From positions 2,422-66,421 of the forward strand of contig CAYHWL010000001.1 of assembly GCA_964359785.1 (NCBI GenBank): a DNA stretch of 64,000 nt, written 5' to 3'. Below are positions 2,657 to 29,964 of this stretch, piece after piece. The notes under the pieces were generated by a model. That model was not told where the DNA came from and did not search any database. It saw only the letters and a program-made list of their open reading frames with translations. Position numbers and translations under genes: made by a program. Positions within the stretch are counted from its first letter, which is position 1, and every line of letters starts with the position of its first letter. The DNA is from an uncultured Methanosarcinales archaeon. GTDB taxonomy: Archaea > Nanobdellota > Nanobdellia > Woesearchaeales > JAGWAF01.

Positions 2657-3645
2657 GTCTCAAGTGTCATGCGGGTTATACGCAATGTTTTTTGGATTAG
2701 GTCTGTTGTTAGTGATGCGTCCAAGTTTATGCTTCCTATCTCGAGATACACTCCATTCTCTGCAAATTTTAGTATCTTTTTTGTGTCTTGGGCAAGATCA
2801 GGGTCGATTGGCATGGGGATGGCGTCTATCCCTTGCGCGCGTAGTGCGTTTGCGAGATGGCATGCCACGGCTGCATTCTTGGGAAAATGCAGGGATGTCC
2901 CGTCATAATCTATTATGGCTTTGTTGAGCAGATCCCCTGTGTGTATGCTCACAAGGGTTAAGCCGCTTGTTTTGATCGTTTCCTCTCTTTGGGTGGATGT
3001 GAGATATTGATCCTTCGAGAGACTTCTTGTAGTGGCAAATGTTCCCATCCCGGAGTCTAACGCGGCGGTCCTCAATATTTCAGCTTCAGTTTTTCCGGCA
3101 TTGACTTGGCCTGTGTCTACGCCGCTTGGGTTCGTCCACATCCCTCCATGTCCGATATCAAGGATGTATTTTTGGGATTCTAATTTTGGGCAGGTCAATG
3201 AGTCTAACAACATAGTAGGTTTAGTCGATATCATGCTTATTTGGTCGCCGTTTCGCATGAGCGTCATCCCTAAAGGTTTTAGCACATCCGTTGATGTGTA
3301 CTTGAGTTTCTTGCTGCCAAGATAAGGCGCACGCGTCTGTCCCACACTGGCGCGGCCGGAATTCATTGGGGTGGTCTCATATACTAGCACATCATCAGAT
3401 AGCCGGTAATTGAATTTTTCAAGTGATGGGGGGGTGTAGAAGAGCGCTGTGTTTTCCGCCAGGGGGATGACACTTAGCAATAACGCCAGATCGTTGGAGA
3501 GATATGTCTTTGCGAAGTAGGTGTTTTCTTGTATGGGTTTTAGGAATTGGCCGTATAGCACGACGCCTACCATCAGCACGAGCCCTATTTCGAAGAGCAC
3601 CATTGTGGTGTCGAAAAGTTCTGTCTGCGCCCGTCTGTTTAGCAT
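2653..3645 (-). CDS. pilin-like protein, start moved to internal ATG (MLNRRAQTELFDTTMVLFEIGLVLMVGVV)
   Basis: The internal Met at 3643..3645 gives a class III-like N-terminus RRAQ followed by a hydrophobic helix. The upstream gene's stop (TAA, 3639..3641) is 1 nt away. The longer 378-aa ORF in the track would overlap the upstream gene by 150 nt. Confidence 0.55.
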   Translation of the reverse strand: MLNRRAQTELFDTTMVLFEIGLVLMVGVVLYGQFLKPIQENTYFAKTYLSNDLALLLSVIPLAENTALFYTPPSLEKFNYRLSDDVLVYETTPMNSGRASVGQTRAPYLGSKKLKYTSTDVLKPLGMTLMRNGDQISMISTKPTMLLDSLTCPKLESQKYILDIGHGGMWTNPSGVDTGQVNAGKTEAEILRTAALDSGMGTFATTRSLSKDQYLTSTQREETIKTSGLTLVSIHTGDLLNKAIIDYDGTSLHFPKNAAVACHLANALRAQGIDAIPMPIDPDLAQDTKKILKFAENGVYLEIGSINLDASLTTDLIQKTLRITRMTLET

Positions 3646-5591
3646 TTTTCCCCCAGTTGGAAGTGCGAAGGATTCTTCTTGTTTTTTCCAAATCCGTTGT
3701 GGCACATCGACTCTTGTAGGACGGCAAGTGTTGTTTTCCCGATTGGTTCGACATCGACTGCGGTTCCAGCGCCATGTCCTGCAGAACAAGTAGGCATTGA
3801 TTCAGTGTGTCCTAGCAAGAATGATTTCTGCGCATTTTCTTGTGTTTGATATGCCAAAAGCACATTTAGCCCATAGCTTCCTGTGCTGCTTTGTTCTGCG
3901 GCTTTCGCGGAAAGGCTGCTTCTGGCGCCATTCAATGCCTTGACTAGTTCTGGGCTTCCCCGGCAGTCTTGCGCGTTGCAGTCGACTTCGATGTTCTTGA
4001 GTGCAGGTTGTGGACATTTGACTGCGGCTTGAGAGATCATCTTATCACTCAAGAGATCTTTGCACATCTTGAACACCTCATCATTGAGGATGTTTCTTGC
4101 GCATGCTTCTTCAATTATGTCTCTTATCTTGAGATTAGATGATTTATCAGTTAAGACAAGCGTGTTATCTATTCTAAGCGCGATTGCGTGATGAGTGATA
4201 GCCAAGACGGGCTTGTCTGTTCTTTGATATGACATCCCAAGGTATCCTTCTGCCAGGCCAAGATTGCCTGATTCCTTGTGCCGCGTCAGGTATTCTGTGA
4301 ATTTCGTGATCGCCAGTTTATAGTCGCCAGAATCAAACGCGCTTCTTGCTAGCAGCATATCCACGCTCTCGACTCCGCCAGGTAATCTCGTCACCTCACT
4401 TTCGACAGTTCTTATCAGATTTTGGAGTCGTGTCTGTGTCTGTGTATTTGGGGTTGCGAATCCTTTTGCGGTCCGCGCAAGCGTGCTTGCCCGTATCAAG
4501 GCATCTTTGCGGATATCTGTATTCTCGGTCTTGCTTGCCTCAAGGTAGAAACTTAACGCGTCCACAGAGACGAGCGCACTTGGTCTGTCAGCGTCTTGCA
4601 TTGGGACATTAGGGAACCCGAATTTGGGATAGAGATCGACTATGACAGCAGGTGGACTGCGCAGTGCGGCGGTTAGTGTATCTCCCGCGATTATCCTTGT
4701 CTTTGCGACGAATTCGGATTCATCGCCTCGTAGCTGCCAGACTAAGCGCAAGTCTTTGAAAAGTCTCTCATATGCTCTTTGCGCAAGTAGATTCTCAAGG
4801 TCACTGATGTCTGTCTGGTATTTGATGCGCAATGTCTCCGAACGTTTCCTCTCCTGGGCCCGATCGCTTCCAAAGAACATGTAGGTCTGTCCTTTGTGGA
4901 TCAATTTCTCGAGATACACTATACGAGTCATCGAGGGTACCGTTCCCGCCGCAGGATCACATGCTCCAAAGTAGACCAAATCGCTTGGTTGAGGTTGATA
5001 ATCAGGCACGGCGAAATTGATGAGTCCGGTATCCACGGCTCCACGATAATTGTCTACTTGCGGGTCGTCTAGGATTTTCCCGCTGTCTATCCTCTCAAAA
5101 GCGCCTTGCCGGTAATCGCTTGAGTATAGCACGTCTGCGTCTATTGTCCGGCATGCCGGGTTGCCTGTTGGGACCCTTTGTGAAGTGGTGGTGATCTTTA
5201 CGCGAGTGCCAGTGACTGTGTTTATGGTCTTTTGGGTATCATAAAGACAGACGCATGCCTTGCCATGCTTGCATCCGCTTGGTCTAGTGAGTATGAATTG
5301 TTCTCCGCAAGCTCCACTCACGGTCTCTTGATTCTTGCCAAATCCCACAAGCACTTTTTCAGGATCTACGAAATATGGTATGGTGGTCGTGCTTAACGTT
5401 TTCTTATCTAGTGTGAGTTCGGTCATTTTGGCGGCGAGCGTATTTAGGTTCATCTCGCTTGTCTCGCTTTGCGCTCCAAAGAAGATGTCATACACGCCTC
5501 CTCCAAATATGAAAAGTGTTGTGATGGTCGTGAGCATCAAGGCTAACACAGCCAGCTCCAATAATGATATGCTCGTGACCCCTCTTTCCAT
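3639..5591 (-). CDS. large (650 aa) pilin-like secreted protein
   Basis: N-terminus MERGVTSISLLELAVLALMLTTITTLFIF (RG followed by a hydrophobic helix). The rest is large and Cys-containing, with no recognised catalytic motifs. Confidence 0.6.
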   Translation of the reverse strand: MERGVTSISLLELAVLALMLTTITTLFIFGGGVYDIFFGAQSETSEMNLNTLAAKMTELTLDKKTLSTTTIPYFVDPEKVLVGFGKNQETVSGACGEQFILTRPSGCKHGKACVCLYDTQKTINTVTGTRVKITTTSQRVPTGNPACRTIDADVLYSSDYRQGAFERIDSGKILDDPQVDNYRGAVDTGLINFAVPDYQPQPSDLVYFGACDPAAGTVPSMTRIVYLEKLIHKGQTYMFFGSDRAQERKRSETLRIKYQTDISDLENLLAQRAYERLFKDLRLVWQLRGDESEFVAKTRIIAGDTLTAALRSPPAVIVDLYPKFGFPNVPMQDADRPSALVSVDALSFYLEASKTENTDIRKDALIRASTLARTAKGFATPNTQTQTRLQNLIRTVESEVTRLPGGVESVDMLLARSAFDSGDYKLAITKFTEYLTRHKESGNLGLAEGYLGMSYQRTDKPVLAITHHAIALRIDNTLVLTDKSSNLKIRDIIEEACARNILNDEVFKMCKDLLSDKMISQAAVKCPQPALKNIEVDCNAQDCRGSPELVKALNGARSSLSAKAAEQSSTGSYGLNVLLAYQTQENAQKSFLLGHTESMPTCSAGHGAGTAVDVEPIGKTTLAVLQESMCHNGFGKNKKNPSHFQLGEKC

Positions 5592-5647
5592 GCCAAAATC
5601 AATGCCGATTTTGATTTATAAACTATTCGACGAGAGAAACAATATCT

Positions 5648-6139
5648 TCAAGGGGGTGTTGGGGTGAGCACGAAAGCAGGGATCTTGCATGGAGGCATAT
5701 TTTGGATGGCGCCCTGCGACTCTTTGCACTTGCCTTTCATATCTCTTTGACAATAGCTATCCTTTGAGTTCCATGGGTCTACATCGCATGCGTCGGGCAT
5801 CCCATCTTTGTCATAATCACATTGGTTTGACCCTCTTGCCTGTCGCAATTTATCTCCGGTTGAACCTGCCCCTTTCTCGGCAAGGATGCAAAAGTCGCAT
5901 TTATCAGGTGCGCAGTCTCCGTCTTTGTCATCATCTGTTATTTTACATTGCTCGTTTTGCTTCACGCCAAATCCGACACAGCTCATATATTGTTGATGAT
6001 ATGTCAATGGTTGAGTGTTTGCGAGTATCACATTGCTCTCCTTTGAGAGGAATGGAATGATTATGATCATGAGAAAGGCGCCAAGTATGAAATATACTAT
6101 GCTTCCGACAGTCATCTCTACGCCGCGTCGATTCATCAT
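5648..6139 (-). CDS. Cys-rich pilin-like protein with DxDxDG (TSP3-like) Ca-binding motifs
   Basis: N-terminus MMNRRGVEMTVGSIVYFILGAFLMIIIIPFL. Motifs DDDKDGDCAPDKCDFC and DYDKDGMPDACD are present. Start ATGs at 6134..6139 overlap the upstream gene's TGA at 6136..6138. Confidence 0.55.
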   Translation of the reverse strand: MMNRRGVEMTVGSIVYFILGAFLMIIIIPFLSKESNVILANTQPLTYHQQYMSCVGFGVKQNEQCKITDDDKDGDCAPDKCDFCILAEKGAGSTGDKLRQARGSNQCDYDKDGMPDACDVDPWNSKDSYCQRDMKGKCKESQGAIQNMPPCKIPAFVLTPTPP

Positions 6140-6378
6140 TTTACAAGACAGCATTTTTGTTTTATTGAGGCGACATCAGGGCATACGAATTGTTTTGCGG
6201 GCACAGCGCAATCAGAGGTTTCTGCCATGCAGGCCCCGTTCTTCTGCTCGCAGCTATTCACGTTTGTTTGGAAGTTTCCTGTCTGTTTTGTGAGGATTAG
6301 CCCCAAAACAAGCAACACTAATAACACGAGCACTGCGATGACTATTGTCGATAATGCCAATTCTTGTCCTTTTCGCAT
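6136..6378 (-). CDS. small archaeal type IV pilin (class III signal peptide), candidate major pilin
   Basis: N-terminus MRKGQELALSTIVIAVLVLLVLLVLGLIL (KG|Q followed by a hydrophobic helix). 80 aa with a Cys-rich C-terminus (…KCCLVK). It is a paralog of the 8565..8846 gene. Confidence 0.7.
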   Translation of the reverse strand: MRKGQELALSTIVIAVLVLLVLLVLGLILTKQTGNFQTNVNSCEQKNGACMAETSDCAVPAKQFVCPDVASIKQKCCLVK

Positions 6379-6413
6379 ATGAATTCACTTCCAAAGTGGG
6401 TTTTTATGTCTTG

Positions 6414-6563
6414 CTATGGTTTGAGTTTGCTGATCATGTCCACCCCTCCTTGGGCCAAATTGTAGGGCTTCTGTCCGAATATGTACAACAAGATCACAAC
6501 GGCTACTAGCATCAAGATTATCTCGATTATATGATCCATGATGATATTGCCTTTCTTGTTCAT
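6414..6563 (-). CDS. 49-aa pilin-like mini-protein (not in the ORF track)
   Basis: Hand translation gives MNKKGNIIMDHIIEIILMLVAVVILLYIFGQKPYNLAQGGVDMISKLKP with stop TAG at 6414..6416. Its start ATG (6561..6563) overlaps the upstream gene's TGA in an ATGA arrangement. It is paralogous to the adjacent 49-aa gene. Confidence 0.45.
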   Translation of the reverse strand: MNKKGNIIMDHIIEIILMLVAVVILLYIFGQKPYNLAQGGVDMISKLKP

Positions 6564-6709
6564 GGCATAAGCCTCCATCCGGAGACAATCGTCTTGAATC
6601 CTCCTTGTTCATATGCGAGAATCATTAATAGCACTAGCAATAACACGGCCACAAGGATGAATTCGCCAAGGTGATCCATTACGATGCTTCCTTTATGGTT
6701 CCTTCCCAT
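6560..6709 (-). CDS. 49-aa pilin-like mini-protein (not in the ORF track)
   Basis: Hand translation gives MGRNHKGSIVMDHLGEFILVAVLLLVLLMILAYEQGGFKTIVSGWRLMP with stop TGA at 6560..6562. It shares the motif KGxIxMDHxxExIL with its tandem paralog. Confidence 0.45.
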   Translation of the reverse strand: MGRNHKGSIVMDHLGEFILVAVLLLVLLMILAYEQGGFKTIVSGWRLMP

Positions 6710-6744
6710 ACCTTTCCAATGAGATCCAATCTTCTTAATGATTT

Positions 6745-7659
6745 CTATTTAGTGCGCACTTCAGTGCATCCCATCCTCTCCAAAGAATTTCTTTCAAGCG
6801 GAACGAACCATACGCTTGAATACCATTGGAATTGGGTGCTCTTCACGTAGGTGCTTAGCACGGTGGGTATCATGCTTCCTAGGGCCAGCAGTCCTCCTTT
6901 GAACTGCAACGCTCCCCCAACAGCCACCCCCGTGTATTGCAACATTGCCACGCCTGTCCACGCACTTGCTGCGATGACAGCCCCTCCTGTATACATGACT
7001 CCAAGGCCCATGATAGCCCCAGCGGCAGGAATTAGCGCCGTCTGTAGTGTATCAGTGAATACATCAAGAGAATCTCTTCCTTTGGCATGATAGAATATGA
7101 CCGCGTATTGGTCTTGTTTTGTCGGATCTATATAGTCTGCTGTTTTATGTTTCTCGAGCTGGCTCAACACCTCATTGGAGAATGTGGCGACACCTGCAAG
7201 TGATTCAGCGTAAGTCTTGGTCGATCCTGGTATCTTGGTAGAGAATAGATAACTATTCATTCCCGCTAACGTATTTTTCTTGTCAGAGAAATCGACATAG
7301 TCGCAGATCTGGCAATAAGCGCCAGGTCCACCATACAGTTCCAGTTTTCCATTGCCAAATTGGTTAAAACAAGTCATCATCGACTGTGCTATCCGCGTTT
7401 TAGCCTCCCTCTGACTGCTTTCACTTGAAAGGTCCCCGATCTTCACATTTCGGACAGGACAGTTGAGTTTTGCAGGAAAATCATAGAGTTTGGTGTGGAA
7501 GCTTGCCGCGGTGTAGACGCTGTCCCTGCATTTCTCATAGGGTATCCTCTCGTCGATAGCTTGTTGGACGTTTGAGAAGTATATCATTGCCATCAGAAGT
7601 ATCACGACAGTGACGGCCAGAGCCACGACGCTAGGCATCGTTATGTCCCCTTTTCTCAT
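6745..7659 (-). CDS. pilin-like protein, start at internal ATG (MRKGDITMPSVVALAVTVVILLMAMIYF)
   Basis: The internal ATG at 7657..7659 overlaps the upstream stop TGA at 7656..7658 (ATGA). The N-terminus is a class III-like signal (RKGD followed by a hydrophobic helix). Confidence 0.55.
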   Translation of the reverse strand: MRKGDITMPSVVALAVTVVILLMAMIYFSNVQQAIDERIPYEKCRDSVYTAASFHTKLYDFPAKLNCPVRNVKIGDLSSESSQREAKTRIAQSMMTCFNQFGNGKLELYGGPGAYCQICDYVDFSDKKNTLAGMNSYLFSTKIPGSTKTYAESLAGVATFSNEVLSQLEKHKTADYIDPTKQDQYAVIFYHAKGRDSLDVFTDTLQTALIPAAGAIMGLGVMYTGGAVIAASAWTGVAMLQYTGVAVGGALQFKGGLLALGSMIPTVLSTYVKSTQFQWYSSVWFVPLERNSLERMGCTEVRTK

Positions 7660-8384
7660 TTTGGCTCCGTTGACAGTTGATAATATTCCTGACAAGCTAG
7701 ATTTGGTACGGTTTCAGTGGGTACAAACACGAGATGGCTCTGCGGTTTGTCATCCACTATCCTGCTTAGAAAGACGATCTCATGGGGTACTCCTTTTTGT
7801 ATGACACTCAAAGGTCGGACTGGCGCGTCCTGTCCAGGTAATGGGATATCGTTTAGCACCGGATTGAGGAACATATTTATGACAGAGAGTTTTCCAAACG
7901 AGGTGTCCAGATAATCTGAATATGTGATCTTGTCGTTTCCCAATAGTTTTGTCTTGGCAAGGTATTGTTTCATCTCTCCGACGGGTACGTCGCTCCCAAG
8001 TGTTATCCGTGAACAATCCAGACAATAGATTTCTCCGCTTCGCACCATCCGTGCCAGCTGATTCTTATTCCCATTCATCTTATCCCAGCAGTTGCGTAAT
8101 TCTTCGGCGATTTTTATCTTGAGTTCAAGATTCTCTCCATTGAGTGTCAATTTATTATAGGGGCAGTTGAGCACAGGCGGGTTGAATCCTTTCTTGAAGA
8201 GGCTCGATCCTGCTCCAGTGGGTTCGAGATAGTTGCTCCGCAGAACCACGCTTGTTTTGCACAATAAGGAGGGTGTGGCTTCATTCACAGATCCTTTATA
8301 CCATTGCGTCACGCCAGCTAGACCGATGATGACGACTAGCACGATTATCATCTCGACCAAAGTATACGCCTGTCCTTTCATCAC
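7656..8384 (-). CDS. pilin-like protein (MMKGQAYTLVEMIIVLVVIIGLAGV)
   Basis: The N-terminus has KG|QAYTLVEM followed by a hydrophobic helix, resembling type IV prepilins. It is the first gene of the lower array. The start is GTG at 8384 or ATG at 8381. Confidence 0.6.
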   Translation of the reverse strand: MMKGQAYTLVEMIIVLVVIIGLAGVTQWYKGSVNEATPSLLCKTSVVLRSNYLEPTGAGSSLFKKGFNPPVLNCPYNKLTLNGENLELKIKIAEELRNCWDKMNGNKNQLARMVRSGEIYCLDCSRITLGSDVPVGEMKQYLAKTKLLGNDKITYSDYLDTSFGKLSVINMFLNPVLNDIPLPGQDAPVRPLSVIQKGVPHEIVFLSRIVDDKPQSHLVFVPTETVPNLACQEYYQLSTEPK

Positions 8385-8564
8385 GGCCCCACTAGGATTT
8401 TCGAGAATATGAGCCCTATGATGATGATGACTATCGATGCTAATATCATCATGACTAGTGACATCGATCCGCCTTCAACGACTTCAGACATGGGCTATTG
8501 GGCGTTTTGTCGATATAAATATGTTTGCAGAAAAAATAGAGATGAAAAATATCAAAGAGAAGTT

Positions 8565-8846
8565 TCAGGCTTTCGATTTACAGCAACAGCGTGAGCCTTC
8601 CTGCACATCTGTGATGAATGCGCTTAGCTCATTTTCTCCGTCAAGACATGCCGTCCCTCTCACTGTCCCGCTCTCAAAATTTCGGGATTGACAGTTCGAT
8701 AAGCATGTGTTGGATTCGACTTTGGAGACCCCACCGCCGAATTTTGCTAGTTTTCCTGTGAATATCGCCACTAGGACCACTAGTACGATTAGCGCGATTG
8801 CCGCGACAACGATGACTGTGACTGATAATTCTTGTCCTTTTGCCAT
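8565..8846 (-). CDS. small archaeal type IV pilin (class III signal peptide)
   Basis: N-terminus MAKGQELSVTVIVVAAIALIVLVVLVAIF. 93 aa with a Cys-rich C-terminus (…RCCCKSKA). It is a paralog of 6136..6378. A TATA box lies about 25 nt upstream. Confidence 0.7.
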   Translation of the reverse strand: MAKGQELSVTVIVVAAIALIVLVVLVAIFTGKLAKFGGGVSKVESNTCLSNCQSRNFESGTVRGTACLDGENELSAFITDVQEGSRCCCKSKA

Positions 8847-8891: not shown

Positions 8892-9353
8892 TCATCGCTT
8901 GTACGCCCAGTCAGCGGCTTGCGGGCTGGAGAGGAAATCATGCTCTTTTAGGGAGTCTATCACATAATGGGTCACTTTGTTGCGGATACCGTACTGTCTC
9001 TCCAATAGGTCAAAGAGATTTTCGACCTCTTTCACATTGGAGAATATCCCTTCGAAGAGGAAGTCATACCCATTGTTTATCCTCCATAGATTATTGACGT
9101 GGGGATGGCCCATCAAGAATTGTTTCACGTCCTCTTTGTCCTTTGCGCGCACTGATAGCAGCACATATGCCCTTGTGGAGAATCCTATCATGGAAAAATC
9201 AGGCACTGCGGTGAATTTCTTGATGAATTTCTGTTTTGTTAGCCTCTCGTATAGTGTCGACACAGGTATCCCTGTGAGCTTGCTCATCTCGGTGAGTTGT
9301 ATCCGGGCATTGTTGCGTAGATGGCATAGCATTATTAGGTCTTTTTTGTTCAT
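8892..9353 (-). CDS. lrp: Lrp/AsnC family transcriptional regulator
   Basis: 153 aa. N-terminal HTH (LTEMSKLTGIPVSTLYERL) and a C-terminal RAM-like domain (…YVLLSVRAKDKEDVKQFLMGHPHVNNLWRINNGYDFLFEG…). Confidence 0.85.
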   Translation of the reverse strand: MNKKDLIMLCHLRNNARIQLTEMSKLTGIPVSTLYERLTKQKFIKKFTAVPDFSMIGFSTRAYVLLSVRAKDKEDVKQFLMGHPHVNNLWRINNGYDFLFEGIFSNVKEVENLFDLLERQYGIRNKVTHYVIDSLKEHDFLSSPQAADWAYKR

Positions 9354-9475: not shown

Positions 9476-10402
9476 ATGCGTAGACATGCGATTCAATTGG
9501 CGAAGAATACTCTGGTGGTCTCTCTTCCTTCGGATTGGGTGAAGCAAAACGGCATCAAGAAAGGGGATTCCTTGAATATCGAGAGCAAAGGGAATCAGTT
9601 GATAATCGCTGGAGAGGGAAAAAAGGCGGTGACAAGCGTCCTGCTAGACACCAAAGGTTTGAATGAACGGAGCCTGCGATGGGCATTCTCCTCTCTGCAA
9701 AAACAAGGTGTTGATGAGATTGAGGTCAGACCTATCTCTCCATTGATAATCAAGCTCTCTCAAGAGATCGTGAGGGATCTCTTTGTCGGGTTTGCGATTG
9801 TGTCGCAAAAAGACAACTCTCTTCTGATCCGCAAGATCTCAAAGGACGCGGTGGATCAGTTCGGCGCCATCATGCGTAGGGCTTTTCTTGTCACTGTGTC
9901 TCTTGCCGAAGGGTTCGCTGATGCGCTTGAACGTGGGGATTTCGAAGAAGCCAGATCTCTGGGATATCTAGAGAAGACGAATAATCAGTTGACGAATTTC
10001 TGTCAGCGATTGATCAATCGGGGTGAAGCTGGTGTTGGATATTCTTCATTCTATTATGTCATTCTCTGGAACATGGAGAAGATAGCTGACGAATACAAAG
10101 CCATGAGTCTCCTCTTGCCAAAAAAGCCAAATATCAGTCCAGGTATGGCTAAGTCCCAAAAGGGGGTTGCAGCGCTGGTAAGGGGGTATTATGATGTTTT
10201 TTATGAAGGGGATGCAAGACAGCTCGGTTTGCTTTCTGAGAGGAAAGCGGCCCTGGAGCAGTCACTTCTCCTTCTGCTGGAGAGGCAGGACAAGACACAG
10301 AGATTGCTTGCGCATCATCTTCTTGATATTGTCTCAAGACTGCAGGATTTCTCCGCCAGTTTCATGACGGTTCGTGGTCTTTTTCAAGTTCAAGAGCTAT
10401 GA
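9476..10402 (+). CDS. phoU: archaeal PhoU-family regulator with an N-terminal SpoVT/AbrB swapped-hairpin domain
   Basis: The N-terminus LAKNTLVVSLPSDWVKQNGIKKGDSLNIE is AbrB-like. The central and C-terminal helices resemble the PhoU domain (…NMEKIADEYKAM…). Confidence 0.6.
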   Translation: MRRHAIQLAKNTLVVSLPSDWVKQNGIKKGDSLNIESKGNQLIIAGEGKKAVTSVLLDTKGLNERSLRWAFSSLQKQGVDEIEVRPISPLIIKLSQEIVRDLFVGFAIVSQKDNSLLIRKISKDAVDQFGAIMRRAFLVTVSLAEGFADALERGDFEEARSLGYLEKTNNQLTNFCQRLINRGEAGVGYSSFYYVILWNMEKIADEYKAMSLLLPKKPNISPGMAKSQKGVAALVRGYYDVFYEGDARQLGLLSERKAALEQSLLLLLERQDKTQRLLAHHLLDIVSRLQDFSASFMTVRGLFQVQEL

Positions 10403-13190
10403 CTTGGAGATTTCCGGCATACGCATCCTCATCGCTAATCATGGAGATGATTCTTGCCCCGTTATGCAGGACTTCTCTTCGTTTTGGCCGCATTGATTCG
10501 CGGTTTGGGCTGCTCCATGCTCCGCACAATGCGACTGCGCGATAATGTATAGCTCCTTGCAGTGATTGTAGGTAATCATCGCTCCTTATCTCGGGACAGA
10601 ACATCTCATGGTGGTTCTTCGCCGCGTCCATCACGATTTTATAGTCGATATCTTGATCAAAGAGAAGAAGATTTGCGATATCGCAAGTGGCAGGAAGCGT
10701 CTCGTATGCGTTTTGCATATCTATCTTCACCGGTTTTTCTCCCATGATGAAATTCATTGGATGTGCGTCTTGGTTTGGCGCGGGAGGACATTTCATCAAC
10801 TGCTCTATGATATAAGATGACATTCTCTTTGTCTGCGCATTGATATCCCGATTTATTTCAAGCCCATCTATCCTTCGATGATACGATTCCGATATATCCC
10901 TGGGTTTCACGCCAGGCACTGGCAATGAATGCAGTTCTGCCAAAAAGAGTGATATCCGATTGTACTCATCACCCACTTGCCTGGATTGTATCATCTCATA
11001 CATTGTCTTTCCATTCTCAAAATGCGTGAGCAGTAATGGTGATTTGCCTTGTATCACATTGATTGGACGGACGACTTTCCCATTCCGAAATTCATTATGA
11101 TGATAATGTTTAGACAGCATAAGCTCCCTGCATGCCTCATCCATGGATGCCATCTCCTTGAGCATGAACGACGCCCCTTTTTTGCTGGTATAGTGTGCCA
11201 CTCTATGGCTGCATTCACTTAGTGAATCGCAGGCGAATTCCGAATTGGCGGCTATCTTCACCGCTGCGATGCCCAGGAGAGTGTTCGAATATTGCTCGTC
11301 ATATTTTGCCATGACGGCGCCTTCGATCAGATATGCTTCGGTGCTATGCCCCATTAGAAGTATCAACTGATCCGTGTATTTTCTGATATCAGGCAGGCTA
11401 TTTCCCATGACAGCGGTGTATTGCGCGGCTAAAAGATTGTGCAGATCCGGTTTTCTAGCCAGGTTTATGCCCCTTCTATTTATCAAATTGAAGAATATAT
11501 CCGTAGTTTTGTTGACAAGAGTGGATCCGTCGAATCCATGCCTAAATGATCGTTCATACGCTTCTATATCTGGCAGTTCATTTGTGTCCGCGACGGTTTC
11601 AGTGAGATAAGGGCGCATCTCATCCGGGACATTCATAAGCTCATTGGATGTTGGGATTCCAGATTTATCCTTTTTGAAAGCGCGTTTCCATATATGGAGA
11701 AAGCTTGTCAATCTTGGTTTCCGGCAATTAGCTCCAAACATCAGCATAGGATGGATAAGATAAGCCCCGGCTAATCCATAAGCGAGGGCTGGAATAGTTA
11801 TCTCCAAAGCAAAAACAGGGCTTGCGCTTGAGATCTCAATAGCTCTACGGAATAGTCCAAGGCTGAGGTATCCTCCAAAACACAGAGCGCTTGTCAGGGG
11901 ATGGTCGGTTATCACATCGATAGGCAGACTCAATGTTCTCTCTAAACATTCTGCTGACAGAGCGTCTCTTGTATCCGCCCTCCGATTGGATCTCAATAGG
12001 TATCCAGCGGATAATGCTATCATTATTGTTGGCAGTATCTGTTTCCATGGAGGAGGGATCTTGACTGTCTTTGGAGTGAGTTGTGTATGTTTGCCATTGA
12101 CGATGTCTATGGAATAGATAAGTCCATCACGATTGTCTATGTGACTGCCGCACAATACCGCTAGGTTTCTCCCGTCTAACCACTTATAGGGCCTCTCATC
12201 ATGATGGAGGGGAGTGAGTCTTCTTATGGCCCCCTCATTTTCATAGATAAGGATCTCGTTCATGTGGGTATCCCATTTCTTGATCAAGACCACCGCGTCA
12301 TGGTTTATGGGATTGTGTAAGATTGAGAGGATTCTGCCAGGCAGATTCTCTCTTTTTATCGAGTCGCCTATCCGTTTTGCCAATACATTCTTTTCTGCAT
12401 ACCATATCTGCTTGCCGTCGCTAGATATGCTGGCGCATGCGGGTCTTGGAGAGATATTTTGCCTCATCTCTAATCCATTCGCGCAGATCTCATATACTGC
12501 CATAGAACTCTCCTTGGAAAATAGGGCGAATGATCGTGGGCCATGCCGGATGACATCTTCAAGTTTTCCGAGATTTGCACCTATCTGACGGGTGTGATTT
12601 GGCCCAAGTATAGCTATCGAGTCATCAGCATGCTGTGCCAAGAAAAGATCAGTCCCTATAAGGTAGGCATTGGAGATCTCTTTTGTCGAGCGCACAATCT
12701 CCCCGTCATCTAGTCGTATCAATCGGCCTTTTGCCCCATCGGTCTCATGTGAATTGAGAAGAAGGTATTTTTCAGAGAACACTTTGGATGATCCATCTGG
12801 ATTCTTGAGCTCCTTTCTTGTTCCTTTCTCTAGGTTTGACAATGCGCAAGAAGACCCGTCAAAGGATTGTGTGATTACTGATTTGCCATCTAAAGAGACC
12901 AAGGAGGCCATCTCTTCTATTCCTAGCGGAGTGATGTTTCTGATACCCGAATCAGTGAGCTCATAGACAGATCTCTTGCCGTGAGCATCTTCCATGGCGC
13001 ACAGATGTCTAGAAAGGTCACTGCTGTACAAAGATAGATTATTTGGCGTCTGTCTATACATCCTCAATGCGGCACTTCTCTTGGGATCACGGTCATTAGA
13101 CCCCCATGCCAAACCAGCCACAACCGCCCCAGATAATAGAGCGTCCCGAATTCCCCGTCTTGCCCCCCATACTTTCTCCCATAGGCTCAT
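10362..13190 (-). CDS. 942-aa membrane protein with an extracellular TolB/PD40-like beta-propeller and a C-terminal aminoglycoside-phosphotransferase / protein-kinase-like domain
   Basis: An N-terminal TM helix (DALLSGAVVAGLAWG) is followed by repeated TolB-like blades (…SVYELTDSGIRNITPL…SLDGKSVI…, …ILIYENEGAIRRLTPL…) and three TM helices. The C-terminal domain carries a kinase-like catalytic loop QDAHPMNFIM (compare HGDLHPGNIL) and KIDMQNAY (compare IDFE/DFG). It is the last gene of the pilin-like operon. Confidence 0.6.
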   Translation of the reverse strand: MSLWEKVWGARRGIRDALLSGAVVAGLAWGSNDRDPKRSAALRMYRQTPNNLSLYSSDLSRHLCAMEDAHGKRSVYELTDSGIRNITPLGIEEMASLVSLDGKSVITQSFDGSSCALSNLEKGTRKELKNPDGSSKVFSEKYLLLNSHETDGAKGRLIRLDDGEIVRSTKEISNAYLIGTDLFLAQHADDSIAILGPNHTRQIGANLGKLEDVIRHGPRSFALFSKESSMAVYEICANGLEMRQNISPRPACASISSDGKQIWYAEKNVLAKRIGDSIKRENLPGRILSILHNPINHDAVVLIKKWDTHMNEILIYENEGAIRRLTPLHHDERPYKWLDGRNLAVLCGSHIDNRDGLIYSIDIVNGKHTQLTPKTVKIPPPWKQILPTIMIALSAGYLLRSNRRADTRDALSAECLERTLSLPIDVITDHPLTSALCFGGYLSLGLFRRAIEISSASPVFALEITIPALAYGLAGAYLIHPMLMFGANCRKPRLTSFLHIWKRAFKKDKSGIPTSNELMNVPDEMRPYLTETVADTNELPDIEAYERSFRHGFDGSTLVNKTTDIFFNLINRRGINLARKPDLHNLLAAQYTAVMGNSLPDIRKYTDQLILLMGHSTEAYLIEGAVMAKYDEQYSNTLLGIAAVKIAANSEFACDSLSECSHRVAHYTSKKGASFMLKEMASMDEACRELMLSKHYHHNEFRNGKVVRPINVIQGKSPLLLTHFENGKTMYEMIQSRQVGDEYNRISLFLAELHSLPVPGVKPRDISESYHRRIDGLEINRDINAQTKRMSSYIIEQLMKCPPAPNQDAHPMNFIMGEKPVKIDMQNAYETLPATCDIANLLLFDQDIDYKIVMDAAKNHHEMFCPEIRSDDYLQSLQGAIHYRAVALCGAWSSPNRESMRPKRREVLHNGARIISMISDEDAYAGNLQVIALELEKDHEPS

Positions 13191-13228
13191 AGATGGAAAA
13201 AATCTGATTTAGCTTAAAAAGATGGACT

Positions 13229-13723
13229 TTAGGCGTCACAGATGTCAAGGGTCACTCTTATCGGGAGATTGCCCCCCAGTGACGCGGGGATTATCTGGCT
13301 CGCTTGGTCTTTTGTCCCTTTGCATTGTTTGCCAAGGGGTGTGTCTATGTCTCTTACGCCAGTTATTGTCAGATAGTACTGCTTGTTTTCTGGTACAAGT
13401 GCGATTTCTAGGACTTGTTTGTTTAGCACTGCGTTGATATATTGACAGCTGTTGTCCCCTCTGATATTCCCGATGTCGCTTGTGCATTTCGCCAATCGCT
13501 CACCTGCGCAGTCTTGCAGCAGTTGTCTAAATGTATTTTTTTGACAGCCTGTGGTGGTGCCAAGCATTGTGTTGAGGAAGCTTGCTGCGAGTCTTTTTTG
13601 TTCATATCCGTGCTGGATATTCTCTGTGGGTTTGTTGATGATAGAAAGCGCGAACAATACCCCCAGGCTCACGAGTATCACTATGATCGCAAGCCCCATT
13701 ATCTCCATCTGTCCCCTACGCAT
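13229..13723 (-). CDS. pilin-like protein (class III signal peptide MRRGQMEIMGLAIIVILVSLGVLFAL)
   Basis: N-terminal KRG|Q followed by a hydrophobic helix. It overlaps its upstream neighbour. Confidence 0.6.
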   Translation of the reverse strand: MRRGQMEIMGLAIIVILVSLGVLFALSIINKPTENIQHGYEQKRLAASFLNTMLGTTTGCQKNTFRQLLQDCAGERLAKCTSDIGNIRGDNSCQYINAVLNKQVLEIALVPENKQYYLTITGVRDIDTPLGKQCKGTKDQASQIIPASLGGNLPIRVTLDICDA

Positions 13724-14213
13724 AGATCCTCACCTTTAGTATTCCAAATGAGTATGTCTTCTTTGCGCTGTCCTGTATCAATACTGGGATGACGCTGGGT
13801 ATCACGGATGTGGCATTCGCCAGTTTGTTGTTGTATAATTGATAGGTATGCCTGTTGGGGTATATCTCTTCGATTGTGACATTCGTATTGCGAAAGACAG
13901 TGTAGTACTGTTCGCGTAAGGTAGCATTATTGTTCAATAACCATGTGAAATTGGCTATCTTGGCTTTATCAAAGCATCTCTCCACCTGTTCCCCTACCCT
14001 GATACAATCCAGTTCTGGGATAGTGCTTATTTTCTGCGAAAGCACTATTGTCTGCAATTGAAGCTCCCGTTCGTAGTCTTTTCCTGCCTGTGCTTTAGAT
14101 ATCAAAAAGTAGAATGAAAGCCCAAATGCGATGAGGAAAAAGAATATGATGAGGACTGCGATAGTCTCAAACATCTGTATCTGCCCTTTTCTTGTGGTTA
14201 TCACGGTTGCCAT
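13716..14213 (-). CDS. pilin-like protein (…TTRKGQIQMFETIAVLIIFFFLIAFGL)
   Basis: Class III-like signal peptide. 165 aa. Confidence 0.6.
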   Translation of the reverse strand: MATVITTRKGQIQMFETIAVLIIFFFLIAFGLSFYFLISKAQAGKDYERELQLQTIVLSQKISTIPELDCIRVGEQVERCFDKAKIANFTWLLNNNATLREQYYTVFRNTNVTIEEIYPNRHTYQLYNNKLANATSVIPSVIPVLIQDSAKKTYSFGILKVRIYA

Positions 14214-14214
14214 C

Positions 14215-15255
14215 TTAGTATATCTCCGGACAGCTTTTCCTGATGTATTCCAGTGACATGGTGGATAATTTGCTTATGTCTCCTGTGATATTGGTGGCGT
14301 CAGTGGCGACGCGCGCATGCCAAGCGAGTGTTTGCAGTGCGTTCACAGGCATGTCATAGTTCATGCCGCATAGATCTTTGTTATTGAATGATTCTGCTCG
14401 CATGGAATAGATATCTGCAAGTGATGCCAGCCGGATATACGCTTCTCTCATGTTGCATGCGTATTGTTTGAAATCTTCGGTGAATATCGCGGCCAGCAGA
14501 TCTCCATCGCTTGCGAATTGTCGGTTTCCTGCCGCGTTCCAGTTGCCGTATTTGTCTTTTGCGAACCAGTATACCGCCTTATGGTCCATATCTATATTGA
14601 GACAGCTGTAATCCTGTCCTTCAAGGGTTGCCATGGTGGGGATATCCTTTGTGCATCCGCCTTGTCCTTGCAACAAGAAGAACACCAGCCTCAATTTTCC
14701 ACCGTCATTGCGTATGTTCTTGGCTCGGTTTACGGCGTCAAGTCCCGTGGCGTTGGCTCTGTTGATGTTGTCTGGGATCATAGATAGTATCCTTCGTATT
14801 TCTGGTGTCAATACTGGTACGGCCATGACGTATTTCACACGTTGATTGGTGGCTATCAAGAAATTCGTCACGCGGAATGGCGCGGCCCAATCGACTGAAT
14901 AGAGCACCATGTTTGGTCCTGTGATTGTTTTGGGCCCAAAGATCAAGGTATCCCCAAACTCCTTTGTTATCGACCCGATGCGGTATCTGCAATCACAGTC
15001 TTCGCAGGAGAAATCGACATCGAGTTCTGGGAATTCGATGAGTTGCGCTGTCCCTTTGGCGGTCTGGGCTCCAGCGGCGATTGCGGAGAGGTCAGATATC
15101 AGGCTCTCTGCGCTTGATTGCTCACTTGCGGTTTTTTGTTTTTGTATGAATCCAAAGAAGGTGATTAGTATTATTCCCCCTGCGATCAGGATAAATACCC
15201 AGTTGATGGGTACTTCTAATTGCCCGGCTCGGTTATTCATTGTTCTTCTTGCCAT
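14215..15255 (-). CDS. pilin-like protein (MARRTMNNRAGQLEVPINWVFILIAGGIILITFF)
   Basis: RAG|Q followed by a hydrophobic helix. 346 aa, Cys-containing extracellular part. Confidence 0.55.
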   Translation of the reverse strand: MARRTMNNRAGQLEVPINWVFILIAGGIILITFFGFIQKQKTASEQSSAESLISDLSAIAAGAQTAKGTAQLIEFPELDVDFSCEDCDCRYRIGSITKEFGDTLIFGPKTITGPNMVLYSVDWAAPFRVTNFLIATNQRVKYVMAVPVLTPEIRRILSMIPDNINRANATGLDAVNRAKNIRNDGGKLRLVFFLLQGQGGCTKDIPTMATLEGQDYSCLNIDMDHKAVYWFAKDKYGNWNAAGNRQFASDGDLLAAIFTEDFKQYACNMREAYIRLASLADIYSMRAESFNNKDLCGMNYDMPVNALQTLAWHARVATDATNITGDISKLSTMSLEYIRKSCPEIY

Positions 15256-15791
15256 TTGCCAACTTGTGTGGTCTTTCCAAGTCCCTCCAGACGCAAAGAG
15301 ACTGTTGATGACTCTATATTGTCTATGCAGAAGAATCCTTGGTTCTCAAGGACTGTTAGTGGCCCCACACGGATCTGTGTCTCGCTTGCGGGTTTGAGGA
15401 ATATGTTCTGGTCGCTTCCGCTTCGTACGGCGTCAGCCATTAGCGCGCTTTGGTTTTCAGCCAGGAAATCTACGCGGGTCTTGTATGTGTTAGGGCCTGT
15501 CTGTATCTGGGAGTCTGTGTAGCTACTTCCCTGGAACATCCTGTTATCGACAAAGCATATGGTCTCAAAACCAGGGCATAGCGTCAAGTCCATCCTGCGC
15601 ACGGTCCCGACAGATGCGGTCACTCGTTCTATCTGATTTTTGAGCGTGTTTTGCGTTTCTATCACGCAGACTTGACTTTTCATCTCTCCAAGAGTGGAGA
15701 TAGACCGATATCCATAGAGGAGGATCATGGCGAATATTATCGCGCCTAATACAAACAGTAACGCTTGTCCTAGTATCTGGGCACGTCTCAT
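15237..15791 (-). CDS. pilin-like protein (MRRAQILGQALLFVLGAIIFAMILLYG)
   Basis: Class III-like N-terminus. Its start overlaps the giant gene's stop (15788..15791). Confidence 0.6.
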   Translation of the reverse strand: MRRAQILGQALLFVLGAIIFAMILLYGYRSISTLGEMKSQVCVIETQNTLKNQIERVTASVGTVRRMDLTLCPGFETICFVDNRMFQGSSYTDSQIQTGPNTYKTRVDFLAENQSALMADAVRSGSDQNIFLKPASETQIRVGPLTVLENQGFFCIDNIESSTVSLRLEGLGKTTQVGKWQEEQ

Positions 15792-18700
15792 TTTCTCCTC
15801 TTCACAGCTGGTTTCTTCCAGGTCTCAAATTGCTTTTGGATCAGGTCTTTGTTCTTTTCCCAATATGCCGCGGTGATCCGGAGTTTCTTGAATAGTTCTT
15901 CAAGGTCTTTCTTGCTTAACTTGCCTTTGCGTGCCAGATCCAATTTTTTCTTTAGCTCTTCACGTTCAGAATCGGTGAATCTCATCAAGGCCATGTTCTC
16001 CAGTGCCTGCATTTCAGGTGATAATGTGCTCTCTTCTCCTTTTGAGATGCCGCTAAAGCTTCTTAATTTACCAAATGCGCTTGTGTCAGGAGCGGCTTCT
16101 TTTTTGCCCAGTTTGCCTACAGCGATGTACTCCTCTTTTCCGGCGCCAGCCGTCCGTGTTGTCACGCTTGATTCGGGCAGGTTCTTTGCCATTCTTCCTG
16201 TTTCGGGTGGTGTTGTCATGCCAGAGCTAAGGTCCAGCTTTGGCATTTGCTCTTTTTTCTTCTCTTTATTCACTACATTTGAAGCGTTTTTAGTCCATAG
16301 GTAATAGAAGATGAATCCTCCTATGATGATTATGCTTGCTGTGAGTATCCATTTTGCCCAGTCGAAAGCTGGTGTGCTTGTGGCGTCGGTTGGATTGCTT
16401 CCCCCTATTATTTCTGCGCCATCGTGGTAGCCGTCTCCGTCTGTGTCAGAATTTGTGGGGTCCACAAATGATCCTGTCCTGTGGTAATAGTTGTATTCAT
16501 CCAGGTTTGTTGCGCCGTCTCCATCCGAGTCTTCCATAGCATCAGCGCTGTTCTTTGGATCAAATCCATATTTGCTCTCCCACCAATCAGGCACGCCATC
16601 TCCATCGGAATCAGGCGGTATGCTATTTGGGTCAGCTGGATTCGAGCCGGCAAGCACTTCTTCGCCATCTAGGTAGCTGTCTCCATCAGTGTCATTCTTG
16701 TGAGGATCCATATCTTGGCCGTTCTGGTTGAAGTGGTTGTATTCTTCCAGGTTTGTGAGACCGTCGCCGTCTGGATCTCCTGTCGCGTCATTAGGGTCGT
16801 TTGGATCAAGGTTATATTTTTTCTCCCACCAGTCAGGCATGCCATCCATATCTGTATCTTTGTCATCGCGTGGATAGCTTTTGCTGTCTGTCGGGTCTGT
16901 CCCGGCGTCGATCTCTGCCTTATCATTGAATCCATCCCCGTCGGTGTCAGCTTTGTTTGGGTCTATCTCTTTTCCGACCGTCTTAAGATACCTATACTCG
17001 GCGAAGTTACTTAGGCCGTCATTGTCATTGTCGAGATTTGCGTCCAAAGGATCGTTTGGATTGAGTCCATGCGCGCGTTCCCAATCATCGGGCATTCCGT
17101 CTCCATCGCTATCGACGTCGCTTGGTCTGCTGTTTGGGTCTATGGGGTTGGTGTTGGCTTTTACTTCAAGGCCATCAGGCGCCCCATCGCCATCGGTGTC
17201 CGCTTTTTTGGGGTTTATGTCTCTATTGTTGTCTTTGAAATAATTGTATTCTTCAAGATTGGTCATTCCATCCCCATCTGAATCCATACTTGCATCGCTG
17301 GCAGAATTAGGATTGAGGCCGTATTTTATCTCCCACCAATCAGGCATGCCATCTGCGTCCGAATCCTTGCCAGAGTCTTGGCAAGTGTGCGTGTCTGCTA
17401 TGGTTATCATGCATGCAAGTCCGCTGCCGCAATCGCTTGTTGTCTTGCATTGCAGGCCGTCTCCGCATTTTGTGGGGCACGCCCCTCCGCAATCAGTGTC
17501 GGTTTCTGTGCCATCTGTCGCATTATTCTCGCATCGGGGTGTCGCTTGACAGATGCCATAGGTGCATCGGCCGCCATTGCAGTCAGAGTCGTAGATACAG
17601 CTTGAGATATTGCGGCATTCGTCAAGGGTGCGGCAAGTGCGGTTTGGACGACTAGTGTCGTTGGATATCACAACAATTGTCCCATTTGACAGCACGATAG
17701 TGTTGTTATATGTCACAACAATTGTACCATTTGGCAGCACGGTAACAACAGGACACGCGCTGCAGCTTCCACCGCAATCTATTGCGGTTTCATCGCCGTT
17801 TCTTGCGCCATCTGTGCAGGAGACTGTCCTGCATATTCCGCCTAAGCATGAGGAGTTTAGACAATCCCAATTTACCGAACATCGCAAACCGTCTTTGCAC
17901 CCTAGGCAATTTCCGCCGCAATCAGTGGCTGTCTCTCTGCCGTCTGTTCGGTTATTGGAACACGTGAGTGGGCGTGAGGCGTTGTCTATTCTGACACCTG
18001 TTGACCGCATGATTGAGGAGTTTCTGCCAGCTCTATCTACTGCCTGCATCTCGAAGTAATAGCTCTCTGTGTTTCTAAGAGTTAGTCCTGTGACGACATT
18101 CGCGTGTTCAGGATTATTCTCACTCACTGGACCTCGTATGGCTGATCCGTTCTGGGCTCTTAGAGTATATGTATATCGGACTATTCCAGTATCCGGATCG
18201 CTTCCGTTATACCATAACGGCAGTCTGTCAAAGTCCGCGCTCACTTGAGAGTCTTCGAATTGTGTGCTGTCATTCACGATTAACATTGTGGGATCGCGCA
18301 AGTCGATCCAAAAATCAGTATTTACCTCTCCAGTCTCCGGTACTCCGCTTATCACGGTATTGCCTAGTGTCCTGCAGTTTGTCCGGGTGTTATGTCGTCC
18401 GCCGGAATTGACATCGAAATTGGTTGTGAGGTTGTGGACTTGGCTTCCGGCGCTCTCTGTGAGACGCACCACAGTGTCTATGGCAAATGAGCAGGTAGCG
18501 TCTTTATTAGATCCTATAGAGAATAATGCGGTGGGTATCCCAAATATCTTTCCGCTGGGAGTGTAATCAGTCAAGATGAACTGTCTGCCGGGGTCTACCC
18601 TAAATAGGATTGTGGCGCCAACTGATCCAAGACCTGATGCGCTCTTGCACGCGACCCGATAAGTATAGCTTCCTACATTTCCCACTGTCAGGTCTGTGAT

Positions 18701-23156: not shown

Positions 23157-23273
23157 TTTGTCCTCTATTTTCCCGAGCCCTTCCTGACGGCAAACATTTC
23201 GGCAAGGGTGATTCCCTCGTATGTCACTATATATAGTTTTGGATAGGCAAGATTGCATCAAAGAATAAGTGTC

Positions 23274-24083: not shown

Positions 24084-24137
24084 AGGATTGGGATGTATAT
24101 CGGCTTATTATATGTTTTGTGCATTACAGTGAGGTGT

Positions 24138-26225: not shown

Positions 26226-26342
26226 GGTTCCAGTACGTACCGATTCGGTGGCAAGAAGGCTTGCCGCATAGAGTTCTCCGGCGGTATGGCTTTCTCCGAT
26301 CTGTGCGACCCTTCCATCTTGGGTGTCATATGCTGGATCGTC

Positions 26343-27281: not shown

Positions 27282-27328
27282 GATTGTCTTCGCAATCCTT
27301 ATATCCACAAGATGATTTCGTGGAAAGT

Positions 27329-29893: not shown

Positions 29894-29964
29894 CCGCACT
29901 TCGGGGCCAGGATCGAGATGTTAAAGTAGGTTTTTTATATTCGAATATCGCTCTTTCTCTCATG

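Follow-up and report, generated by a model that had tools for sequence, protein, structure and literature searches.

A divergent APH/ChoK-fold kinase family in pilin-like gene clusters of small archaeal genomes, here in a putative receptor-like form

Introduction

Bacterial receptor Ser/Thr kinases carry extracellular sensors, as is the case for the beta-propeller protein PknD and the PASTA protein PknB of Mycobacterium tuberculosis. Here, we describe, from a small DPANN-type archaeon of groundwater, a 942-aa membrane protein with a C-terminal kinase domain (the target), whose gene lies at positions 10362..13190 of the (-) strand of a 64,000-nucleotide stretch of contig CAYHWL010000001.1, called the window below, which GTDB places in the Woesearchaeales. 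With PknD and PknB the target would share the combination of extracytoplasmic domain, membrane span and cytoplasmic kinase, the likeness being closer to PknD if its ectodomain is a propeller. However, PknD and PknB are Hanks-type kinases with an N-terminal catalytic domain and a single transmembrane (TM) segment, whereas the kinase of the target is of the aminoglycoside phosphotransferase/choline kinase (APH/ChoK) type and lies C-terminally behind about three TM segments, with a propeller unproven.

DPANN archaea are ultra-small, mostly uncultured episymbionts. To our knowledge, it is not known how they control their attachment structures, and few recognisable signalling systems are present in their genomes. 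Pili and giant surface proteins are presumed to underlie their attachment to hosts (e.g. the groundwater study PMC9938205). The nearest biological analogue of the module described here is the archaellum network of Sulfolobus, in which ArnA and ArnB are phosphorylated by the eukaryotic-like protein kinases (ePKs) ArnC and ArnD (PMC4858521), so that a type-IV-pilus-like filament is under phosphorylation control via transcription regulators. That network employs Hanks kinases together with FHA/vWA regulators, whereas the present module, from a different phylum, combines an APH/ChoK kinase with AbrB and Lrp/AsnC proteins. According to a 2016 census of archaeal type IV pilus (T4P) loci, archaellum-network genes never occur in T4P loci, and no AbrB, Lrp or phosphotransferase component is mentioned there.

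With respect to the catalytic domain, the closest described proteins are the APH/choline-ethanolamine kinases (PF01636), represented by 3csv, APH(3')-Ia (4ej7), human ChoK-beta (2ig7), homoserine kinase II (2ppq) and LicA (4r77). The target family resembles them in its bilobal protein-kinase-like fold, in the β3 Lys, the αC Glu, the D-x4-N loop and the Mg-binding Asp of the IDxE motif, and in a D-[LI]-A-N motif on the helix that follows the Mg site. It differs from them by its own DAHPEN and AWSSPxR...R motifs, by fusion to TPR/helical regions or, in the target, to an ectodomain and a TM block, and by a fixed genomic link to pilin-like genes and AbrB/Lrp regulators. APH-fold proteins that act on proteins or peptides or serve as regulators were compared as well, namely E. 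coli YihE/SrkA (1zyl), the class III/IV lanthipeptide kinases LxmK (9dk1) and TvaE, FN3K, and B. subtilis CcrZ (7s3l). No specific sequence relationship to the target was found for any of these and, unlike the target, none is membrane-anchored with an ectodomain or tied to pilin clusters.

Results

A divergent phosphotransferase with a conserved active site

The target had been noticed in a first reading of the DNA letters by a model (the sequence-only reading), and the open reading frame (ORF) list confirms a frame of 942 aa at exactly the above position, with the stop codon at 10362-10364. Residues 641-942 (10365..11270, (-)) form an APH/ChoK-fold (protein-kinase-like) phosphotransferase domain. 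Word-indexed homologue searches with the full protein and with a 3-sequence alignment returned no match beyond the target itself, and family relatives were obtained by an exhaustive HMMER search, which yielded 55 cluster representatives. The full-length architecture is represented by the window protein (locus L001), P0002 (locus L002) and P0003 (locus L003). P0002 and P0003 align with the target from residue ~310-360 to the end, the remaining relatives of the 55 set only over residues ~700-925. P0001, encoded on the short ENA groundwater contig Hain_H52_02um, is 99.7 % identical to the target and differs by S496I, H666Q and M816L.

The β3 ATP-binding lysine K678 of the segment 'FMLK' (11157..11159, (-)) is invariant in alignments A3/A4. 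The catalytic loop N806-Q-D808-A-H-P-M-N813 (10752..10775, (-)) is of the Brenner type (D-x4-N), with NKDAHPEN as family consensus, and K822-I-D824-M-Q826 (10713..10727, (-)) holds the Mg-binding Asp, the equivalent of DFG, in an 'IDxE' context. Both catalytic motifs to which the sequence-only reading had pointed, QDAHPMNFIM (N806-M816) and KIDMQNAY (K822-Y829), are present, and their Asp residues D808 and D824 are the sole invariant columns in the alignment of the 55 relatives. When the set is enlarged to 76 distinct sequences, which are otherwise ~20 % identical, D808 and D824 are each retained in 76/76, H810 in 74/76 and P811 in 75/76, while K678 is kept in 72/73 and the αC Glu E689 in 71/73 non-gap sequences; position 813 is Asn in 71 sequences and Gln in 5. 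The family-specific positions H810, P811, R884, W892, S893, R897 and R904 are all conserved to >90 %, and the family has the signature NKDAHPEN...IDxE...P..FDLANL...R...AWSSPxR...R. Because the catalytic positions are essentially invariant in sequences that have otherwise diverged this far, we judge the active site to be intact and the kinase domain to be, apparently, catalytically competent.

The profile libraries reach the target itself less directly. Its Pfam APH match stays below the threshold of 23.2 bits, with 15.6 bits (E 0.014) for the whole protein and 17.6 bits (E 0.0034) for the C-terminal half. Pfam APH is matched by 40/55 relatives at E<=0.01 (best E 3.6e-13), and membership of the target in the APH family thus follows transitively. 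The NCBIfam scan of the target gave no assignment; relatives weakly match GntI, APH(3') and thiamine kinase, APH(3') being matched in 5 of them. A PDB sequence search with the single target protein found no match, that with the full-length family alignment was dominated by TPR matches stemming from some relatives, in which TPR repeats lie N-terminal of the kinase, and a profile of the kinase domain alone gave weak ePK and APH matches. The sub-threshold score, along with the extreme sequence divergence, could point to a pseudokinase, in which the fold is kept as an ATP-binding or structural adaptor that tethers regulators or filament machinery to the membrane. Yet an essentially invariant set of β3 Lys, αC Glu, catalytic Asp, Asn and Mg-binding Asp across the 76 sequences is the signature of an active enzyme, and we consider the scaffold explanation improbable.

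Structure prediction agrees with the assignment. While AlphaFold2 (AF2) was uninformative from the single sequence (predicted local distance difference test, pLDDT, of 35), a purpose-built multiple sequence alignment (MSA) of the family brought residues ~580-940 to pLDDT 85-98. The model displays a bilobal protein-kinase-like fold with an APH/ChoK-type helical C-lobe, which Foldseek matches to APH(3')-Ia with a probability of 1.0 and a target TM-score of 0.59-0.66, and likewise with a probability of 1.0 to ChoK/ethanolamine kinase-family proteins, APH(2''), LxmK and FN3K; identity to any matched solved structure is 7-17 %. Hallmarks of Hanks-type kinases, i.e. a GxGxxG loop, an HRD catalytic loop, a DFG...APE segment or a Pkinase profile match, were not found in the target. 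The last ~300 residues of the target can be described as a highly divergent phosphotransferase with the APH/ChoK fold. The kinase fold is thus APH/ChoK-like, a fold of mostly small-molecule kinases, and not Hanks-type 'eukaryotic-like'. The sequence-only reading had left the choice between an eukaryotic-like and an APH-like kinase; AF2, Foldseek and the Pfam matches of the relatives uphold the latter, the Hanks-type alternative falls away, and with the bilobal fold found and the catalytic Asp conserved among homologues the kinase assignment as such stands. In terms of fold class, the target represents a divergent, previously uncharacterised APH/ChoK-type kinase family, here in a rare, putatively receptor-like form.

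The same structural neighbours favour a different function, that of a small-molecule, glycan or lipid kinase working at the cytoplasmic face of the membrane as a modification or biosynthetic enzyme. Its substrate would be a small hydroxyl compound, for which choline, ethanolamine or an amino-alcohol are candidates, as are sugars and lipid-linked glycan precursors. What is formed would either go into the decoration of pilins or of the giant adhesin in the cluster described below, or be salvaged from the host, and the anchor would merely localise the enzyme. One relative has been named 'thiamine kinase-like enzyme' by JGI, and the conserved C-lobe arginines R884, R897 and R904 could bind an anionic substrate. 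The P..FDLANLLEY segment of the target family presumably resembles a choline-kinase motif, which we take as a lead only. By comparison, an aminoglycoside or macrolide phosphotransferase conferring antibiotic resistance is hardly conceivable, even though the best Foldseek matches are to APH(3')-Ia and the NCBIfam APH(3') model weakly recognises the 5 relatives mentioned: identities amount to only 14-17 %, no NCBIfam or Pfam match reaches its threshold, the AWSSPxR motif of the family does not occur in APHs, and neither the membrane/TPR fusion architecture nor the strictly conserved pilin and regulator context fits such an enzyme.

The kinase gene recurs beside pilin-like genes and two regulators

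The gene context was analysed by our own ORF calling, with a hidden Markov model for the kinase, jackhmmer for the AbrB and Lrp proteins and a signal-peptide rule for pilin-like ORFs. A metagenome scan with the full-length alignment gave no match, while one with the closer alignment set A5 contributed 45 further loci. Loci scoring >=145 bits were defined as family kinase loci (23 non-redundant), and 14 weak APH-like loci below 100 bits served as controls. An AbrB gene lies <=100 bp from the kinase gene in 16/23 family loci and <=3.5 kb from it in 18/23, and an Lrp/AsnC gene is found within <=1.2 kb in 18/23; for all three measures the controls score 0/14. At least three pilin-like ORFs occur within <=8 kb in 20/23 family loci, where they make up as many as 15/24 ORFs in one locus, compared to 0-1 per control locus. 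The adjacent AbrB genes, which mostly code for ~300 aa, all lie on the strand opposite to the kinase, divergent or convergent depending on the locus. The kinase family is thus almost always a conserved component of clusters of pilin-like and giant-surface-protein genes with AbrB and Lrp/AsnC regulators in small DPANN-type archaeal genomes. In the literature searched, which did not cover all journals, no description of such a kinase or module in archaeal or DPANN pilus loci was found, in line with the remark of the sequence-only reading that the protein is not a described archaeal pilus component; the association of kinase, pilin/adhesin genes and two regulators is apparently undescribed so far.

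The closest syntenic locus, L003 from a Woesearchaeota metagenome-assembled genome (MAG), is collinear with the window in its giant surface protein, four pilin-like genes, TM-kinase, convergent AbrB gene and Lrp/AsnC gene. L002 holds the same gene set with the giant moved, and the whole second pilin array follows. Its contig (CAZQZJ010000001.1) is labelled 'uncultured Methanosarcinales archaeon' and shares the cluster with the window and the Woesearchaeota MAG; this label probably stems from a mistake in binning or taxonomy. Soluble family members without TM segments occupy the same cluster beside an AbrB-type gene, namely P0057 (509 aa, on a 580-kb contig), P0060 (538 aa), P0011 (703 aa) and P0032 (1006 aa), and the same module surrounds soluble members in L004, L005, L007 and L009. 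The boundary of the family may be reached with two groups of more distant APH-like proteins. In the first, of 498 aa (L037-L039; 96 bits), pilin-like genes are missing and an AbrB-like gene lies on the same strand at a distance of 56 bp; the second, of ~1100 aa (L040-L053; 54-95 bits), lacks every gene of the cluster.

In the window, the AbrB/MazE (SpoVT-type) partner of 308 aa lies at 9476..10402 (+), convergent to the target gene, with the 3' ends of both genes overlapping by 41 nt. Its N-terminus matches Pfam MazE_antitoxin (E 1.7e-9). The DNA-binding domain is followed by a conserved C-terminal part of ~250 aa with the invariant motifs LEKTNNQLTNFCQR and WNLEKVADDYKY (orthologues in L002-L036), for which a PDB profile search gave only spurious matches to leucine-rich-repeat designs and motifs, located on the invariant motif. 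For a PhoU-like domain, which had been suspected there, Pfam gave no match. The Lrp/AsnC-family transcription regulator is encoded at 8892..9353 (-) and matches Pfam AsnC_trans_reg and HTH_24.

The antitoxin match of the partner, joined by a weak one to 'doc_partner addiction module antidote', and its tight pairing with the kinase could suggest a toxin-antitoxin-like pair, i.e. a kinase toxin following HipA- or Doc-like logic that is neutralised by the AbrB/MazE-fold protein and lodged in a variable surface-protein island. We hold this to be very improbable. The two genes lie on opposite strands, convergent or divergent, rather than in one operon, the partner reaches ~300 aa by virtue of its large conserved extra domain, and the kinase of 500-1000 aa bears TPR or TM additions. 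Moreover, toxin-antitoxin modules are mobile and patchy, unlike this pair, which keeps the same syntenic position with Lrp and pilin arrays in many reduced genomes.

A probable outside domain and a membrane block added to the kinase

Ahead of the kinase domain, four parts of the target can be distinguished. Residues 1-30 (13101..13190, (-)) comprise a basic N-terminus and a short hydrophobic segment, hydrophobic also in P0002 and P0003, which hydropathy and charge identify as a probable signal anchor or signal peptide. Residues 31-381 (12048..13100, (-)) constitute a β-rich, probably extracytoplasmic, sequence-orphan domain as judged from Pfam, phmmer, AF2 and sequon density. They are followed by a membrane block (residues 382-487; 11730..12047, (-)) with about three hydrophobic helices at 385-401, 431-447 and 459-486, delineated by alignment A2, hydropathy and homology to L003/L002, and by a cytoplasmic linker (residues 488-640; 11271..11729, (-)) with helical repeats at its end, just before the kinase N-lobe. 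AF2 places these helices at 555-648, with pLDDT climbing to 85-95 from about residue 580.

All three full-length proteins begin with basic residues and a hydrophobic segment behind them, and possess a robust TM segment directly after the ~350-aa domain (after residue 381), a weak middle hydrophobic segment preceded by the motif S-x-P-I-D-x-x-T-x-H-P, and an invariant R-K-P-x-L (RKPRL in the target) after the last TM segment. In alignment A2 the loop motif and the post-TM motif R490-K491-P492-x-L494 consist of invariant columns, and residues 382-640 are homologous to L003 (E 2e-9) and L002 (E 5e-4). In each of the three homologues, residues 31-381 exceed the C-terminal part 3.5-6.5-fold in the density of N-glycosylation sequons; for the target the densities are 1.14 vs 0.22 per 100 aa. 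Taking hydropathy, the positive-inside rule and this sequon bias together, a topology with an N-terminal signal anchor, ~350 aa outside, three TM segments and the C-terminus inside is plausible. The N-terminus of the target, GARRG/IRDALLSGAVVAGLAWG (P0002, KKKA/V...; L003, RRA/N...), loosely resembles the class III signal peptides of the neighbouring proteins, which raises the possibility that it is processed by prepilin peptidase.

According to the sequence-only reading, the outside domain was a TolB/PD40-like propeller, for which we obtained no support. Pfam has no match to residues 1-381 of the target at E<=10, the PD40 profile reaches merely E 0.36 over 11 residues at the N-terminus of P0002 and nothing in P0003, a self-BLAST did not find internal repeats, and a motif scan returned two S-x-DGK motifs only, at residues 98 and 255. 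The AF2 model of residues 31-381 has low confidence (pLDDT 27-73) because the MSA is uninformative in this region; at 94-168 and 286-325 it shows short strands in series of four, which would be compatible with propeller blades. A propeller fold is hence neither shown nor excluded.

Pairwise identity among the three ectodomains, at 21-24 %, is no different from the shuffled baseline of 22.4 +/- 2.8, and phmmer found neither a paralogue nor an orthologue of the ectodomain among all ORFs of 54 loci and the window, syntenic orthologues included. Overall, the target is ~27 % identical to its L003/L002 counterparts, and this only over the C-terminal 60 %, whereas its neighbours are 43-59 % (L003) and 33-70 % (L002) identical. 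By these comparisons the target gene, above all the part coding for the outside domain, is the fastest-evolving element of the cluster. Among the loci analysed, N-terminal domain and TM block are limited to the proteins of window/L001, L002 and L003. They are a lineage-specific add-on, fused to the kinase in the window lineage and two syntenic relatives. A co-occurrence with pilin arrays in other archaea, proposed by the sequence-only reading as a check, holds for the kinase family in the 20/23 loci named above, while the full architecture is confined to these three loci.

The cluster in the window and the start of the target gene

Upstream of the target, four tightly packed pilin-like genes (164, 165, 346 and 184 aa) extend over 13229..15791 (-). 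Their products start with class III signal peptides (RRGQ, RKGQ, RAGQ, RRAQ) and a hydrophobic helix, and are 46-59 % identical to the syntenic L003 genes. Class III signal peptides were found at 13229-13723, 13716-14213, 14215-15255, 15237-15791, 8565-8846, 7656-8384, 6136-6378 and in others, with [KR][GA]Q ahead of a strongly hydrophobic helix as the form in the upstream genes; Pfam N_methyl matches 7656-8384, though weakly (E 0.018). A second pilin-like array of at least eight genes with class III-type N-termini (93, 242, 316, 80, 168, 650, 378 and 159 aa) lies downstream of the two regulators, covers 2177..8846 (-) and has collinear orthologues in L002. A prepilin (type IV leader) peptidase is encoded at 31221..31934 (-) (Pfam Peptidase_A24, E 3.7e-9). 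Its gene adjoins those of an RNase P p30 subunit and of tRNA modification, ~18 kb from the pilin arrays. The pilin context noted beforehand is therefore borne out by the four upstream genes on the same strand, the many downstream genes with class III signal peptides and the peptidase.

The same gene string is headed by a giant surface protein of 1989 aa (15788..21757, (-)), upstream of the pilin-like genes. Its translation shows an N-terminal signal peptide, a Cys-rich N-terminal part, a TM segment near residue 1800 and a Lys/Glu-rich cytoplasmic tail, as well as numerous repeats rich in Asp ('DxDxDG...MPDWWE...NP.D') that resemble calcium-binding repeats of thrombospondin type 3. Identity to its counterparts is 46 % in L003 and 29 % in L004, whereas BLAST gave no match between it and the 2069-aa giant of L002.

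The target gene is separated from the pilin-like genes by a spacer of 38 nt (13191..13228, (-)), which carries T5/T6 runs and a TATA-like CTTTTTAAG at 13213-13221, ~27 nt before the ATG. In other loci, clear TTTATATA-type boxes stand at the same distance ahead of the homologous kinase gene. Such boxes precede unit-leading genes of the window and not the tightly packed pilin-like genes. They were seen ~26-33 nt before the starts of window genes at 27056, 8846, 5591 and 24083 and in L002, L004, L005, L009, L018 and L022, a spacing that suggests short or absent 5' leaders in the source organism and its relatives. Since the spacer holds a TATA-like box as in the homologous loci, the target gene probably has its own promoter and is probably not the last cistron of a pilin operon; the spacer is also a possible terminator of the pilin unit. 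Its description as the terminal gene of a pilin operon is thus correct with regard to position, whereas operon membership is called into question by the spacer with its T runs and box.

Further genes lie around the cluster. For the four ORFs upstream of the giant (21762-27056, (-); 499, 269, 695 and 237 aa) Pfam gave no match at E<=0.01, and three of them possess an N-terminal or N-proximal hydrophobic segment, the 695-aa ORF being the one without. A polysaccharide-deacetylase-like gene (27284-28006) may form a peptide or glycan modification unit beside the surface-protein cluster, together with two overlapping frames at 28493-31182 (+), of which the first codes for a radical SAM/SPASM protein of 466 aa and the second, of 450 aa, has no Pfam match. 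An IS66-family transposase gene (39920-41311, (+); E 1.6e-26) sits between housekeeping genes for PheRS and a TrmB regulator. The source of the window is an archaeon, with genes for Orc1/Cdc6, archaeal PheRS, a PAN-type AAA ATPase and a factor of the eRF1/Pelota type. Pfam leaves many ORFs unmatched, and tRNA and Rfam scans of the 64 kb found no features.

Discussion

We tentatively favour, as a possibility short of an even chance, that the target works as a receptor-like kinase which, together with the regulators encoded next to it, influences the pilin/adhesin cluster. In such a scheme the outside domain would register an external cue, be it contact with a host or a surface or the state of the filament, and the TM block would pass this cue to the cytoplasmic kinase. 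The latter would phosphorylate a cytoplasmic target, which could be either of the transcription factors encoded alongside or a small molecule that serves as their effector, and this output would tune the expression of the pilin/adhesin cluster. In the relatives without an ectodomain, the same kinase-regulator module might answer an intracellular cue via the helical/TPR N-terminal region. The substrate of the target may be a protein, which would make this classical signalling, or a small molecule.

Several observations weigh against this interpretation. No ligand or sensor family was matched for the ectodomain by Pfam scans, AF2 or phmmer, and the TM segments of the target are weakly hydrophobic (Kyte-Doolittle peaks 1.2-1.6). 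Most family members are soluble proteins of ~500-700 aa without ectodomain or TM block, so that ectodomain sensing is not the general mechanism of the kinase family. Furthermore, neither a T2SSE assembly ATPase nor a T2SSF/TadC platform was found among the scanned ORFs of the window, and the term 'pilus' therefore rests on signal peptides and the peptidase; the assembly genes may lie outside the 64 kb. The premise of a pilin array is reasonable yet incomplete.

The main rival is the small-molecule, glycan or lipid kinase set out above, which we regard as somewhat unlikely. Its structural support is opposed by the kind of genes that are conserved next to the kinase, namely those of two transcription factors and of structural surface proteins and not of the glycosyltransferases, nucleotidyltransferases or transporters that a pathway of modification would require. 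The TPR/helical regions of the relatives point to protein interactions, and it is hard to see what purpose a large, rapidly evolving outside domain would serve in a cytoplasmic metabolic kinase.

A more far-reaching version of the receptor-like interpretation is one we deem distinctly doubtful. It holds that the APH/ChoK-fold kinase, AbrB and Lrp/AsnC proteins constitute a dedicated DPANN control module for the host-attachment apparatus, which in the Woesearchaeota-like lineage of the window would have become a true transmembrane receptor, with a diversifying outside domain that senses host or surface and switches filament/adhesin expression by phosphorylation. As for the sequence-only reading, its observation is partly confirmed: gene, catalytic motifs, kinase fold and pilin context hold, propeller and strict operon membership do not. 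Its interpretation as a signalling module that controls or senses the surface filament is partly supported.

In conclusion, a fold and an active site can now be assigned to a set of 'hypothetical' proteins. A kinase family located beside two transcription factors in a pilin/adhesin cluster provides a concrete, testable candidate for the control of attachment in DPANN archaea. If the enzyme phosphorylates a small molecule for the decoration of filaments, it would represent a new archaeal surface modification. If the target signals, it would extend the receptor-kinase architecture to a fold that is usually tied to small-molecule phosphorylation, and, should the receptor reading be true, it would stand for archaeal receptor kinases of a new type, based on the fold of a 'small-molecule kinase'.

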